Assembly: GCA_038133485.1 (NCBI GenBank)
Contig: JAYPTH010000004.1
Coordinates: 1,023 to 65,022 of the forward strand
Reading direction: 5' to 3'
Length of the DNA: 64,000 nucleotides
DNA from: Gammaproteobacteria bacterium
GTDB taxonomy: Bacteria; Pseudomonadota; Gammaproteobacteria; Magnimaribacterales; TMED112
Shown: positions 10,715 through 48,591 of the stretch, one piece after another
Numbering within the stretch: the first letter of the stretch is position 1
Layout: each line of letters begins with the position of its first letter
Notes under the pieces: model-generated
Told to the model about the DNA's origin: nothing
Seen by the model: only the letters and a program-made list of their open reading frames with translations
Database searches by the model: none
Position numbers and translations under genes: made by a program

Positions 10715-11804
10715 ATTCCTCTACTTCACGCCATACCCTTGCAGTATTACCACCAAGAATTTTAGTAATATCATTTTTAGAGTATCCTCGAGAATGTAAT
10801 TCATCGATTAAATTTGGAAAATCAGAAACATCTTTAAGATTAATTGGTAATGTATCGCCTACCCCATCGTAATCTGAGCCAATTCCAACATGATCTACGC
10901 CCACTAATGTAACTGCTCTATCAAAATGATCTACCACTTGCTCTAAAGTTGCAAAAATATAATCTTCAGTAGCATTTGCATCATTGCTGCGTTGCTTATC
11001 AATAATAAAGCTAGAACCAAAATTAATCTGTAAAACCCCTCCATTTTCAGCTAATTTTATTAACATTTCATCTGAGACATTGCGTTCCCAGCCTGGTGTA
11101 AAATGTCTCATAGATGAATGGCTGGCTATAACAGGGGCTTTAGACAATTCCAGAACCTCAAAAAATGCATCATCTGAAACATGAGAAATGTCGATCATCA
11201 TTCCTACATTATTCATTTCCTCAACTAATTCTCTTCCGAAAGGACTTAAACCACCCCAACGTTTATTTTCATCATAAGAAGAATCAGAAATATGGTTACT
11301 CTCAGAATGAGCTAATGTGATATACCGTATACCTTTATCATAAAAATATTTAACTCTGTCTAGCTTACCTTCTAGGGGAGCACCATTTTCCATACCTAGC
11401 GCAATGCCAATTAGATTTTGCCCTGGAAGGTTTGCTAAGTATGTGGTTTGATCCAATAAGAAAAATTTATCAGGATTATTATCGATAACATCATTGATCA
11501 TAGCTATAAGTTCATTTGCCACCGTAAAACTTGTGCCTTCTCTTTCTGTCTGGGCTGGTAGATAAATAGAAAAGAAGGGAACATTTAAACCGCCAGATAG
11601 CGCCCTGTAGTAATCAAAATCAAATGTAGTTGTTTCTGATATATCTTCATATCTATTGTCTTGATCTAGTTGAGCTTTTAGTCGATAGGGAATGTCAATG
11701 TGAGTATCAATGATTAAATTTTCCTGAGCGAAATTTTTGGAATCAAATTCAGACGAACAATTAACTAAAATCGTTATAGCTAAGATCCTTATATAGTTAT
11801 TCAT
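10698..11804 (-). CDS. Membrane dipeptidase (peptidase M19), probable lipoprotein
   Basis: IDTHID, MENG, TLAH, DISH, ASHS, GSDYDG. Start moved to MNNYIRIL (8-nt overlap with the upstream gene). Confidence 0.9.
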   Translation of the reverse strand: MNNYIRILAITILVNCSSEFDSKNFAQENLIIDTHIDIPYRLKAQLDQDNRYEDISETTTFDFDYYRALSGGLNVPFFSIYLPAQTEREGTSFTVANELIAMINDVIDNNPDKFFLLDQTTYLANLPGQNLIGIALGMENGAPLEGKLDRVKYFYDKGIRYITLAHSESNHISDSSYDENKRWGGLSPFGRELVEEMNNVGMMIDISHVSDDAFFEVLELSKAPVIASHSSMRHFTPGWERNVSDEMLIKLAENGGVLQINFGSSFIIDKQRSNDANATEDYIFATLEQVVDHFDRAVTLVGVDHVGIGSDYDGVGDTLPINLKDVSDFPNLIDELHSRGYSKNDITKILGGNTARVWREVEEYARNK

Positions 11805-12588
11805 ATCTGCCACCTGCAATTTTATTTCCAATGAAGCGAATAAATGGTTTTGGTAAATACCCTAGGCCGCTAACTAGGAATCTATATATTGCGCCCGGGA
11901 TAACAACTTCTTTATTTTTAAACATACCAGTTATACCTTCTTTGGCAACTTGGTCTGCAGAGAGTTTCATGAATTTTGGTACCTTATCCATCCTGTCTTG
12001 AGTGCCACTAACTGAATGAAATTCTGTAACTGTAAATCCAGGACACAAAGCTGTAGCAAAAATATTATTTTTGTTATAAGCAACATTCAAAGCTTCCACA
12101 AATCGATTCATAAATGTTTTTACAGGGCCATATAGAAATGCAAATTCACCACTTGGTGGGGCATACCCAGCTACTGAGGAAACAACCATAATTTTTCCAC
12201 CACCTCTGTTTTTGAGATGCTTGATAAAAAGCTTTGATTGCATAATGACTGAAAGCCCCAAGACTCTTAAGCAATCTTCCTCGTCAGAAATTGAGACTTC
12301 TTCAAAAGTTCTATGATGTTGGTATCCAGCATTTAAAATTAATAATTCTATATCTAAGGCTTTACTTACGGTGAAATCATAAATTCTTTCTGGCGCTTGG
12401 CTATTAGTTAGATCTTCTACAATAAATAGAACTTCAACATTAAATTTGTCTTTAATATCTTCAGAAATTTGAATTAGTCGATCTTCTCTTCTAGCAACTA
12501 GTAGTAAATTATAGCCTTTCTCAGCTAGTTGATATGCTAGCGCTTTACCAATGCCAGCAGTTGGTCCTGTAATTAATGCATAACTCAT
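11797..12588 (-). CDS. Short-chain dehydrogenase/reductase
   Basis: LITGPTAGIG, NAG, SS, YGPVK, LCPGFT. Confidence 0.9.
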   Translation of the reverse strand: MSYALITGPTAGIGKALAYQLAEKGYNLLLVARREDRLIQISEDIKDKFNVEVLFIVEDLTNSQAPERIYDFTVSKALDIELLILNAGYQHHRTFEEVSISDEEDCLRVLGLSVIMQSKLFIKHLKNRGGGKIMVVSSVAGYAPPSGEFAFLYGPVKTFMNRFVEALNVAYNKNNIFATALCPGFTVTEFHSVSGTQDRMDKVPKFMKLSADQVAKEGITGMFKNKEVVIPGAIYRFLVSGLGYLPKPFIRFIGNKIAGGRYE

Positions 12589-12806
12589 AAATAATCTCCA
12601 TCTATTTACAATTATAAAATTAATTTTTCAAAATAAGGATAATATATGTGCTTGTTTATTAATCAGTCTGCCTATTTTTTAATCAATGAAAATATCGAAA
12701 ATATTTTGAAGATAATTTATTTTAAATATTTTTTGGTGTAAAACTATTATTTTTAAAGGGTTTTCAGACATCATAAAAAAAAGTACTATTTTTTTTAACA
12801 ATATGC

Positions 12807-12835
12807 TTGCAAACAGAAAAACACTTTTATAAAGT
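12807..12835 (+). promoter_or_regulatory. Sigma70 promoter for the downstream ncRNA
   Basis: TTGCAA (12807-12812), 17-bp spacer, TAAAGT (12830-12835); A/T tracts upstream resemble an UP element. Confidence 0.65.
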
Positions 12836-12841
12836 AGATCT

Positions 12842-13066
12842 TACCTCGCGGTAACAGACTGAAAAGGGAACTGCAGAACCCAAACCAGAAAGAAACCACA
12901 GGCAGAGAACAGAAAGGTGAAAGTTCAAGCAAGCTTAGCCGGCAAACAAGCAAACTTGACCACCAAGGATAAAAGAGATCTTATCCAAGGATGCAAAAGA
13001 TAATCTCACTTTTGACACCTACTGATCTCGAACTTAAAGAAAACTGAGCTTGCTCAGTTTTTTTTT
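12842..13066 (+). ncRNA. Structured non-coding RNA, ~225 nt, family unassigned
   Basis: Flanked by a promoter and an intrinsic terminator; five nested helical regions found by eye with A-rich unpaired segments; no credible ORF. Confidence 0.8.
13040..13066 (+). terminator. Rho-independent terminator
   Basis: Inverted repeat AAAACTGAG-CTTG-CTCAGTTTT running into a 9-T tract. Confidence 0.9.
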
Positions 13067-13092: not shown

Positions 13093-13908
13093 GTGAAAGT
13101 TTTCTATTTAGGTCCAGAAGGCACAAACTCTAATTTAGCAGCTCTTGAAATATTTCCTGGAGATTTTTCTTATGTTCCTCTACCCTCAATTGAAGATATA
13201 TTTCAGAAAGTAGCACTAAGTCATTCTTACTATGGAGTTATACCATTTGAAAACTCTTATCAAGGCGTAATTAATTCGTCCTTAAATTGCCTTATTGACT
13301 ATGATTTAAAGATTGTAAAGGAATTAAATTTTGCTATTAGCCATTCATTTTGTTCATTAAATAAAAGTCTCGATAAATTGAATGTATCAAAAATTGCCAG
13401 TCACCCCCAAGTTCTAGGTCAATGCAGTAGTTGGTTAAATAAAAATTACCCTAATGCTGAAAAAATTGTATGCACTAGTACAGCAGAAGCTGCAAAATTA
13501 GCAAGTCATAGTAATGAGATTTTCTGTATCGCTAATGAATATGCAATAAAACTTTTCAATCTCTATTCACATGAAAAAGATATTCAAGATTCTGCAACCA
13601 ACTCAACACGTTTTTTAGTGATTGGTAAAATGATTGAAGAAAGCTCAGAAAAAAATAAAACTTCAATAATGATTAATATTGCTGATACTCCTGGATCACT
13701 TATTAAAATTTTACAGCCATTTGCTGAGCTCGGTATTAACATGACAAGAATTGAAACAAGACCATCCAGAAATAATCAATATCTGCATACCTTTTTTATA
13801 GATTTTGAAGGCTGGTTTGAAGACAGCAAGGTCCAAGAACTATTAATTAATCTAGAAAATATATCTGAAGAACTAAGGGTAATAGGTTCTTACCCGGTGC
13901 AGTCTTAA
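13093..13908 (+). CDS. pheA: Prephenate dehydratase (PDT+ACT, no chorismate mutase domain)
   Basis: YLGPEGT, PFENS, SHPQ, NSTRF, PGSL, IETRPS, FFIDFEG, GSYP. Confidence 0.92.
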   Translation: MKVFYLGPEGTNSNLAALEIFPGDFSYVPLPSIEDIFQKVALSHSYYGVIPFENSYQGVINSSLNCLIDYDLKIVKELNFAISHSFCSLNKSLDKLNVSKIASHPQVLGQCSSWLNKNYPNAEKIVCTSTAEAAKLASHSNEIFCIANEYAIKLFNLYSHEKDIQDSATNSTRFLVIGKMIEESSEKNKTSIMINIADTPGSLIKILQPFAELGINMTRIETRPSRNNQYLHTFFIDFEGWFEDSKVQELLINLENISEELRVIGSYPVQS

Positions 13909-20918: not shown

Positions 20919-20994
<76 letters not shown>

Positions 20995-27802: not shown

Positions 27803-27887
27803 GGGGATGTGGTGGAATTGGTAGACACGTGCGACTCAAACTCGCATGCCGCAAGGCGTAACGGTTCAAGTCCGTTCATCCCTACCA
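27803..27887 (+). tRNA. tRNA-Leu(CAA)
   Basis: GGGGATG/CATCCCT acceptor stem, anticodon arm TGCGA-CTCAAAC-TCGCA, long variable arm, ACCA end. Confidence 0.96.
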
Positions 27888-41905: not shown

Positions 41906-41982
41906 GCGCTTGTAGCTCAGCTGGATAGAGCGCTTGGCTACGGACCAAGAGGTCGGGAGTTCGAATCTTCCCAGGCGCGCCA
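41906..41982 (+). tRNA. tRNA-Arg(ACG)
   Basis: 77-nt cloverleaf; anticodon arm CTTGG-CTACGGA-CCAAG; GCCA end. Confidence 0.97.
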
Positions 41983-42050: not shown

Positions 42051-43724
42051 ATGAAAAATATATTTTTTTTAATCTTTATTCTTTTAAACATGCTACATGG
42101 ATATGACAGAATAACTGGTTTGCCATTTGCAAGCAGGTCAGAAGTTATTGCAGAAAATGGTATGGCAGCAACTAGCCACCCTCTGGCAACAGATGCGGCA
42201 ATAGAAATTTTAAAAAATGGTGGTAATGCTATTGATGCTGCAATAGCTGCAAATGCAGTTTTAGGTCTTGTAGAGCCAACCGGTTGTGGTATTGGTGGAG
42301 ATTTATTTGCCATTGTCTGGGATGCCGAGACAAAGCAATTGTATGGTTTAAATTCCTCAGGGCCAGCACCGAAAGCCATGACGATAGATTTTGTGAAAAA
42401 CCAAGGCTTTGCACAGATTCCTGCTTATGGCCCACTTCCTGTAACAGTACCTGGGGCAGTAGCTGGCTGGGCTGCTCTGCATAAACGTTTTGGAAAGAAA
42501 AATTTTAAAAGTTTATTTTCTCAAGCTATCAATTATGCTGAAAATGGTTTTCCAGTAACAGAACTTATAGCCTACTACCTCAATGGTTCAAGTAGACGAT
42601 TTAAAGACTATCCAAATTTCTCTGATGTATGGATGCCAGATGGAGCAACTCCAAAAAAAGGGGAAATATTTAAAAATCCTCAACTAGCAAATACATATAA
42701 ACAGATTGCTTCATCTTATGGCAATACATTTTATAAAGGTAAAATAGCTAAAGAAATATCAGAATTGATAATTTCACAGGGAGGGCTGTTAGACGAAGAT
42801 GATTTATCCAATTTTGTCCCAGAGTGGATAGATCCAGTTTCAACCAACTACAGAGGTTATGATGTCTGGGAACTTCCTCCTAATGGTCAAGGTATAGCGG
42901 CCTTGCAAATTCTTAATATTCTTGAGAACTTTGATATAAGTTCAATGGACTTAGATTCAGCTGAATATGTACACCTTTTTACTGAAGCTAAAAAATTAGC
43001 ATTTGAAGATCGAGCATATTTTTATGCAGACCCAAATTTTTCTGAAATTCCAACAAATATTTTAATTTCAAAAGAATATGCCAAAGAACGTCTGCCTCTT
43101 ATTGATATGAATAAAGCAAGTAGCAAATATGATGCTGGTATAGAACATGGAGATACTATATATCTCACGGTTGCTGATAAATATGGCAACATGGTCTCAC
43201 TGATTCAGAGCAATTATAGAGGCATGGGTTCCGGTATGGTGCCAAAAGGTTTAGGTTTTATGCTTCAAGATCGTGGTGAAATGTTTAGCTTAGACCCTGA
43301 ACATAAAAATTCTTTAGTTGGTGGCAAGCGACCTTTCCATACAATCATTCCTGCTTTTATTACAAAGAATGATCAACCATACATTTCTTTTGGATTAATG
43401 GGTGGAGCCATGCAGCCACAAGGACATGCACAGATTGTGATTAATTTAATTGATTTTGGTATGAATCTACAAGAAGCAGGTGATGCGCCCAGAATTAGGC
43501 ACGCTGGATCATCACAACCTACAGGAGAAATCATGCTTGATGGTGGCTATATAAGCTTAGAAAGTGGTTTCTCAGAAGAGACTAGAGAAAAATTAATACA
43601 AATGGGCCATAAATTACAATATGACAAAGGTAGTTTTGGTGGATATCAAGCAATAATGTTGAAAGATGGTGTATATTTTGGAGCTTCTGAAAGCAGAAAA
43701 GATGGCCATGCTGCCGGTTATTAG
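42051..43724 (+). CDS. ggt: Gamma-glutamyltransferase
   Basis: GGNAIDAAIA, GIGGD, VPG, PPNGQG, DTIYL nucleophile Thr, RPFHTIIP, MGG.MQPQGH. Confidence 0.93.
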   Translation: MKNIFFLIFILLNMLHGYDRITGLPFASRSEVIAENGMAATSHPLATDAAIEILKNGGNAIDAAIAANAVLGLVEPTGCGIGGDLFAIVWDAETKQLYGLNSSGPAPKAMTIDFVKNQGFAQIPAYGPLPVTVPGAVAGWAALHKRFGKKNFKSLFSQAINYAENGFPVTELIAYYLNGSSRRFKDYPNFSDVWMPDGATPKKGEIFKNPQLANTYKQIASSYGNTFYKGKIAKEISELIISQGGLLDEDDLSNFVPEWIDPVSTNYRGYDVWELPPNGQGIAALQILNILENFDISSMDLDSAEYVHLFTEAKKLAFEDRAYFYADPNFSEIPTNILISKEYAKERLPLIDMNKASSKYDAGIEHGDTIYLTVADKYGNMVSLIQSNYRGMGSGMVPKGLGFMLQDRGEMFSLDPEHKNSLVGGKRPFHTIIPAFITKNDQPYISFGLMGGAMQPQGHAQIVINLIDFGMNLQEAGDAPRIRHAGSSQPTGEIMLDGGYISLESGFSEETREKLIQMGHKLQYDKGSFGGYQAIMLKDGVYFGASESRKDGHAAGY

Positions 43725-43800
43725 CGCCTGTAGCTCAGTTGGATAGAGCACTTGGCTTCGAACCAAGGGGTCGGGAGTTCGAGTCTTCCCGGGCGCGCCA
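43724..43800 (+). tRNA. tRNA-Arg(TCG)
   Basis: 77-nt cloverleaf; anticodon arm CTTGG-CTTCGAA-CCAAG; GCCA end. Confidence 0.95.
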
Positions 43801-48500: not shown

Positions 48501-48591
48501 TGGCGGAGAGAGAGGGATTCGAACCCTCGGAACGCTATTAACGTTCACTCACTTTCCAGGCGAGCACCTTCAGCCACTCAGTCATCTCTCC
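48501..48591 (-). tRNA. tRNA-Ser(GGA)
   Basis: GGAGAGA/TCTCTCC acceptor stem, anticodon arm CTCGC-CTGGAAA-GTGAG, long variable arm, GCCA end. Confidence 0.96.

Follow-up and report, generated by a model that had tools for sequence, protein, structure and literature searches.

The IMES-1 RNA motif was reportedly described by Weinberg et al. in 2009, and the RNA has since been said to be among the most abundant non-ribosomal RNAs in coastal seawater; we know of no function for it. In the openly accessible literature that we searched, no paper names IMES-1 or IMES-5, and the main text of Weinberg 2017 does not name IMES; the relation of IMES-1 to IMES-5 and the pseudoknot discussed below may already be drawn in Weinberg 2009, in subscription journals or in supplements. 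Two other kinds of RNA, 6S and CsrB/RsmZ, are like IMES-1 abundant, stand-alone, structured and terminator-ended, and they act on a protein, which is also the mode of action that we favor for IMES-1; IMES-1 is nevertheless a member of neither, 6S being a separate gene in the genome studied here and CsrA not having been found in that genome's family. In purine-riboswitch-type junctions, two neighboring hairpins pair through their loops beside conserved joining strands. The likeness of IMES-1 to these is one of folding and not of membership: its junction is four-way, and it has no constant regulated gene and no known ligand. Dupont 2012 (PMC3358033) had assigned to the genomes of SAR86A and SAR86B an RNA that is abundant in the metatranscriptomes of Shi 2009, and from the shared carbon-metabolism context we infer that this RNA is identical with IMES-1.

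How does the locus compare with the described family? The stretch of DNA analyzed (the window, 64,000 nucleotides) was searched with Rfam covariance models, and IMES-1 (RF02034) matches positions 12849-13042 of the plus strand over the whole model (1-191 of 191, E = 4.3e-27), with 127.4 bits against a curated gathering cut-off of 81. No other Rfam family matched the region 12842-13066, and the other Rfam matches in the window are five tRNA genes only (20922-20994, 27803-27884, 41906-41979, 43724-43797 and 48504-48591). A reading made from the sequence alone had proposed an RNA either new or related to the IMES class; the second proposal was right and the first wrong, because the Rfam model gives full-length IMES-1, and the consequence foreseen for a strong Rfam hit has followed, in that novelty is gone, the match being complete and far above the cut-off, and a host lineage, SAR86, has been assigned. 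The region is not a new RNA class. It is the single IMES-1 gene of a marine SAR86-order genome of ~1 Mb and 35% G+C (0.96 Mb; 964 kb in 25 contigs, 89% complete), and the marks of the family were all found in it: the model score, the 5' hairpin loop, the covarying junction, the joining strands and high marine RNA abundance. Between the Rfam family and the window's copy, P1, the junction, the conserved strands, the marine origin and the abundance are all alike, and nothing essential differs. The window's clade scores 110-140 bits with the IMES-1 model, versus ~190-206 bits for another family of the order (f3 of the four families, f1 to f4, in which f1 is the window's own), so the Rfam seed resembles f3; in the window's clade P1 has an additional GGG/CCC pair, and AAGGA is followed by one more U. 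The features are as follows.

11797-12588, minus strand: short-chain dehydrogenase (SDR) gene
12807..12812, plus strand: -35-like hexamer TTGCAA, a conserved upstream element
12830..12835, plus strand: -10-like hexamer TAAAGT, with a 17-nt spacer to the -35-like hexamer
12842..13066, plus strand: IMES-1 RNA gene with terminator (RF02034 match 12849-13042; contigs of RNA runs over 12840-13064)
12844..12902, plus strand: P1, a hairpin of three tiers whose internal loops are conserved (the Rfam P1 extended by an outer CCU/AGG and the clade-specific GGG/CCC)
12844-46/12900-02, 12850-52/12895-97, 12859-61/12886-88 and 12866-68/12879-81, plus strand: P1 pairings CCT/AGG, GGT/ACC, CTG/CAG and GGG/CCC
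12871..12876, plus strand: palindromic hexamer CUGCAG in the P1 apical loop
12905..12917, plus strand: 5' strand of P2 (GAGA 12905-08, CAG 12910-12, AGG), pairing with 13018-13029
12925..12959, plus strand: P3 hairpin, TCAAG/CTTGA and an inner part
12967..12986, plus strand: P4 hairpin, 12967-72/12981-86, loop AAGAGAUC
12975..12979, plus strand: P4-loop half GAGAU, pairing with 13003-13007
12994..13014, plus strand: P5 hairpin, 12994-99/13009-14, loop AUAAUCUCA
13003..13007, plus strand: P5-loop half AUCUC, pairing with 12975-12979
13018..13029, plus strand: 3' strand of P2 (CCU, CTG 13022-24, TCTC 13026-29)
13040..13066, plus strand: intrinsic terminator, stem CUGAG/CUCAG, loop CUUG, nine U
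13093-13908, plus strand: prephenate dehydratase gene, starting 27 nt past the terminator

The minimum-free-energy fold of the region (-53.1 kcal/mol, z = -2.8, equalled by 2 of 200 shuffles) has the layout drawn in the sequence-only reading, and every helix named there lies where it had been placed, P1 coinciding with the Rfam P1. Across 108 distinct homologues, 87.3% of cells pair, compared with 71.9% in shuffles (none of 500 reaches the observed value) and only 24-46% when the partners are slid; 577 cells have changes on both sides, and 23 of the 36 pairs have two-sided changes. P2, P3, P4 and P5 covary strongly, above chance, which was the check that the earlier reading had asked of its own model. 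The outer GAG/CUC of P2 is kept in 100-101 of 108 sequences while its inner pairs vary between GU, AU and GC, and the outer GAGA/UCUC extends beyond the Rfam model, its fourth pair being A-U in 36 and U-A in 7. All five basal pairs of P3 show two-sided changes (96.5% of cells pair), as do 5 of 6 pairs in P4 (93.8%) and 5 of 6 in P5 (98%), and the P2 and P4 helices stand as first proposed. For P3 and P5 the original proposal needs trimming: TCAAG/CTTGA covaries in P3, but the U-A pair of the basal GGTG/CACC is broken in 40 of 108 sequences without compensation, and the CAAAAG/CTTTTG stem of P5 covaries, but its AGG-TG/CA-CCT extension does not. The extension competes with the Rfam P2 pairing of AGG 12915-17 with CCT 13018-20, and a C variant (G-C in 5 sequences) is tolerated by the Rfam P2 pairing only.

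P1 is a harder case. Its stems vary in step over 98 distinct P1 segments, judged by eye; the MAFFT alignment of P1 alone (A2) shifts the f1 rows, and for this reason no column-wise pair count is given. RNAalifold, run on alignment A1, missed P1, and when the segments are folded singly, only 38 of 98 form a single hairpin that leaves the hexamer open, many f3 folds pairing CUG with CGG inside the loop. The joining strands of the junction, GGUGAAAG, CCACCAAG and AAGGA (CAAGGA), are invariant columns of the alignment. The RNA has two domains. In the 5' domain the three-tier P1 presents a 10-nt loop that hardly varies and has a palindromic hexamer at its center; in the 3' domain P2 closes a four-way junction over P3, P4 and P5, whose joining strands are long, rich in purines and nearly invariant.

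The region sits in a 504-nt gap between two genes, and IMES-1 is a stand-alone gene with its own conserved sigma-70-type promoter and a strong intrinsic terminator. A promoter had been proposed upstream from the sequence: of 108 distinct upstream regions, 106 do have an element TTGNNN-16/17-TANNNT at the same position (TTGACA in 52), but the window's own copy is weak, matching the consensus at 8 of 12 positions, and a consensus scan does not list it. From the spacing we infer a transcription start at 12842 +/- 1. The proposed terminator lies at 13040-13066 as expected and recurs in each of the 31 homologues in alignment A1, one stem pair switching from A-U to U-A in 12 of them; the scan lists the hairpin on the minus strand only, and the nine T (13058-13066) were read directly on the plus strand. 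The surroundings differ between families, with SDR divergent and prephenate dehydratase codirectional in f1, ETF-QO upstream and a convergent DUF1285 gene in f2, and a variable context in f3, where the neighbors include pyruvate kinase, KDPG aldolase, malate synthase and the oxaloacetate decarboxylase beta subunit.

In the assemblies of four metatranscriptome runs, which come from three studies, contigs span 12840-13064. Their summed depth over IMES-1 reaches up to 5.4e4, 338, 1.7e6 and 268 in the four runs, a rough measure of expression that sums relatives at least 90% alike and does not show the ends of the RNA; contigs running into the next gene have depths of 4.55, 8.45, at most 31.6 and 0 in the same runs, that is, 40 to 50,000 times below IMES-1. 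The description of the RNA as an abundant marine one is borne out by these depths. No contig of the four runs was found over 12600-12839, an absence that does not count as evidence for a start site. The RNA is transcribed alone, and the product would be ~200-225 nt long. One contig stops at 13043 and continues with 13 A, and another, ending at 13064, folds back on the terminator; these ends could reflect poly(A) tailing or could be library artefacts.

The host lineage of IMES-1 is SAR86 (order Magnimaribacterales). An IMES-1 match was found in 43 of 61 genomes of the order (23/29 in f1, 10/11 in f2, 8/10 in f3 and 1/10, a weak one, in f4), and the window's family is probably the CHAB-I-7/TMED112 family of Freel 2024 (PMC11582366). 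In a wider pattern scan with one genome per species, checked with nhmmer, at least 101 of at least 123 loci are true IMES-1, and among the matches listed their titles are almost all 'SAR86 cluster bacterium', the holders including SAR86A, SAR86E, TMED112 and two complete genomes; the closest named copy among these matches, 93.9% identical, is from 'SAR86 cluster bacterium isolate MED-G83' (named through an identical entry). The other 22 loci of the scan, in Bacteroidota, Dehalococcoidia and others, are chance matches by nhmmer. Two MAGs titled Porticoccaceae also have a true IMES-1 that scores 168 bits; the contigs that carry it are 57 and 316 kb long, and its neighboring genes give no clue. 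Around one of these MAGs, IMES-1 was found in 1 of 41 genomes, which is that MAG itself. Among viral contigs, three of seven pattern matches are IMES-1 fragments at the ends of short contigs and are uninformative.

Several genomes have two IMES-1 copies (loci L004, at G031:C2:70485-70991, L083, L103 and L056/L057). Those of G031 stand in tandem ~125 nt apart, the upstream copy being without the outer CCU/AGG pair of P1. In G040, copies lie in opposite orientation at each end of one 279-kb contig (L008, G040:C2:1-1722), and a large serine recombinase gene adjoins one of the two; the arrangement could mark an integration site or could be an assembly artefact. A 3.4-kb contig in a genome of the window's genus carries an f3-type IMES-1 of 192 bits (L009, G024:C31) and was probably mis-binned.

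The weak matches in f4 proved to be a different family, IMES-5 (RF02995), at 124 bits against a cut-off of 96.1 bits for its covariance model. IMES-5 was found in 10/11 genomes of f2 and 8/10 of f4 but in 0/10 of f3 and 0/29 of f1; it was matched neither in the window's genome nor in any of the 29 genomes of its genus. It shares the plan of IMES-1, with a 5' hairpin whose loop reads A(A/C)CUCGAGAC, followed by GAAGGGUGA and a closing helix round three hairpins, the last two of which carry complementary loops. Unlike IMES-1, it is shorter (150 positions), has GAAG/CUUC in place of the outer P2 pairing GAGA/UCUC, and is without the AAGGA linker. The link between the two families, suggested by this shared architecture, is accompanied by a weak cross-match of the IMES-1 model on IMES-5 loci (34 and 28 bits). 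In nine f2 genomes, the coordinates put IMES-1 and IMES-5 on one contig, 13-14 kb from each other (e.g. G039:C1:423882-424032 and 437697-437880). The sister family IMES-5 fills the gap in the one SAR86 family that is without IMES-1: one RNA, the other or both were found in 51 of 61 genomes, in all seven single-contig genomes and in each of the four families, a distribution that hints at a core role. Neither RNA was found in the other 10 of 61 genomes, which are 60-94% complete.

The complementarity between the P4 loop (GAGAT) and the P5 loop (ATCTC), which the sequence-only reading had taken for a kissing-loop pseudoknot, is real. The GAGA/UCUC loop-loop pairs are kept in 100-101 of 108 sequences, the remaining 7-8, an f2 subclade, keeping only GAG/CUC. 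A fifth pair takes the form U-A in the window's clade (25 sequences) and A-U in an f3 subclade (20) and is missing in 63, the two forms being separate ways of adding it. Within IMES-1 the four core pairs never covary, and further instances of GAGA and UCUC, in the linker between P1 and P2 and in the 3' tail, make other pairings possible. In IMES-5 the same two loops read GGGU (P4) and ACCC (P5); among 17 distinct sequences, G-C is exchanged for A-U once, wobble changes occur twice, and 97% of the cells pair. On this comparative evidence the P4 and P5 loops probably pair with each other, and the pseudoknot would lock the junction into a rigid shape.

Is IMES-1 one of the known housekeeping RNAs in disguise? 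The earlier judgment set it apart from 6S, tmRNA and RNase P, and rightly: each of the three has its own gene in the same genome, 6S (RF00013), whose fold is a rod with a central bubble, at G000:C1:71683-71855 with 47.1 bits, and no 6S match falls in 12842-13066. The small SRP RNA carries a domain IV hairpin with a GNRA loop and an AGCA motif. It (RF00169) was matched neither in the window's genome nor in the 61 genomes, and the two genome-wide matches to the domain IV motif lie elsewhere than the region and do not pair. The protein side is missing as well: none of the 61 genomes has a match to the Ffh M domain (PF02978), a search of them for the SRP54-type GTPase domain (PF00448) gave only weak P-loop matches of at most 26 bits, and the DTAGR motif occurs in no ORF of the window's genome. 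Control searches for SRP were positive in 12-14 of 14 genomes. No signal recognition particle component was found in the closed isolate genome CP151794.1 either, and the particle was thus not found anywhere in the SAR86 order (61 genomes and CP151794.1), an absence that Dupont 2012 (PMC3358033) notes tentatively. L20 and PheS, which stand on the missing-gene list of that paper, are present in the window's genome at a contig end. We considered IMES-1 or IMES-5 as a stand-in for the SRP RNA and rejected it, Ffh and FtsY being missing too and the two Porticoccaceae MAGs with IMES-1 having Ffh. CsrA (PF02599) was not found in the window's genome (89% complete) or in f1 (0/29) or f3 (0/10), whereas it was found in f2 (11/11) and f4 (10/10), which shows that the search works; Hfq (PF17209) was found in 0 of 61 genomes, a control search being positive in 5 of 14.

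What, then, might IMES-1 do? The best joint explanation, which we hold to be very probable, is a stand-alone IMES-1 gene for a two-domain structured RNA with putative partner binding in trans. As to the last part, unpaired letters conserved across the order, helices that change freely and extreme abundance together suggest that the rigid RNA would act in trans by binding a conserved and abundant partner, a protein or the ribosome, and not varying mRNAs; we offer this mode of action tentatively, at somewhat below even chances. In the window's genome the partner would not be CsrA or Hfq.

The alternative that survives best is that IMES-1 is a base-pairing sRNA controlling carbon-assimilation mRNAs, as Dupont 2012 (PMC3358033) suggests for the SAR86A/SAR86B RNA, having found it abundant in a variable carbon-metabolism region and deduced RNA-based control. 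The f3 neighbors listed above fit such a role, but the neighborhoods of f1 (SDR, prephenate dehydratase) and f2 (ETF-QO, DUF1285) are different, so context gives no common target; moreover, the lack of an Hfq match in the 61 genomes speaks against it, as do the conserved unpaired strands, which are purine-rich and held within a compact junction. We consider this role unlikely, though worth keeping in mind.

Quite unlikely is the idea that IMES-1 assembles with itself: the palindromic P1 loop would join two molecules into a dimer, larger particles made of RNA only might also form, and the P4/P5 pairing would be made within or between molecules. The conserved 5' hairpin loop, AACUGCAGA at 12869-12877 of the window, follows the pattern A[ACT]CT(GC|CG)AGA in 98 of 98 distinct P1 segments; its hexamer is CTGCAG in 79 and CTCGAG in 19, a central GC-to-CG swap that preserves the palindrome, and it is CTCGAG in 18 of 18 IMES-5 copies. 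That both hexamers are palindromic, and that IMES-1 and IMES-5 of f2 genomes carry the same one (CUCGAG), suggests loop-loop dimers. The loop is predicted to be open (unpaired probability 0.77-1.0 at 12872-12877), and a 6-bp loop-loop duplex is computed at -9.9 kcal/mol. This is reminiscent of the HIV-1 dimerization initiation site, where, as in IMES-1, a hairpin loop of 9-10 nt contains a 6-nt palindrome with A on either side, although the molecules are unrelated and dimerization of IMES-1 is a proposal only. Large bacterial RNAs that form RNA-only multimers are reported in a preprint (bioRxiv 10.1101/2024.12.08.627333). Against self-assembly, there are only two hexamer states, which fit a single change at the split between pairs of families, a random double change would keep the palindrome in 3 of 15 cases, and the palindrome was spotted after the fact, among many conserved motifs. 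[quoted passage not shown]

Could the RNA instead be a cis leader that controls the prephenate dehydratase gene as a riboswitch or attenuator, switching at the terminator? A kissing-loop junction followed by a terminator resembles riboswitch aptamers, that gene begins 27 nt downstream of the terminator in the window, and in 11 of 13 f1 loci an ORF follows on the same strand at the same distance (prephenate dehydratase in the two Pfam-checked loci). Outside f1 the reading is refuted, the ORF downstream being convergent at all 9 loci of f2 and the f3 neighbors varying, so IMES-1 is not a leader there; no alternative antiterminator pairing is evident and the terminator, with its nine U, is strong, which leaves a leader very unlikely overall. 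That IMES-1 is a CsrA sponge of the CsrB/RsmZ kind or a further 6S-like RNA is highly improbable: the invariant AAGGA between P4 and P5 and the several GGA motifs counted by eye in one f3 copy (G052) would suit a sponge, yet for f1 and f3 both possibilities are contradicted, the first by the CsrA searches given above and the second by the canonical 6S gene and by a fold that is no 6S-like rod. That the region encodes a small protein, from an 18-codon ORF at ATG 12991 on the plus strand (the ATG follows AAGG in all f1 copies) or from the ORFs of 30-52 aa listed on the minus strand, is next to impossible, as f2 and f3 copies have no ATG, substitutions track base pairs and not codons, and the stop is not conserved within f1.

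IMES-5 itself (L157-L174, e.g. G032:C1:369930-370077) is confined to the two families that encode CsrA, f2 and f4 (IMES-5 in 10/11 and 8/10, CsrA in 11/11 and 10/10), and it carries two or three ANGGA-like motifs, counted by eye; it might be a CsrA-binding RNA of these families. They are probably sister families, so that the co-occurrence of IMES-5 and CsrA may be a single event.

The favored reading of the locus thus remains a stand-alone gene for a structured IMES-1 RNA that may bind a partner in trans. The observation from which the analysis started was correct and careful, and it concerned a known family in a known host lineage: IMES-1 is assigned to SAR86, and in the lineage of the window it can be excluded as a CsrA-, Hfq- or 6S-type RNA. 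The window adds no new class of RNA, but it makes the question of what IMES-1 does easier to test. The closed genome of isolate HIMB1674 holds both IMES-1 and IMES-5, so that wet-lab tests are now possible and the function of these RNAs can be put to the test in culture.
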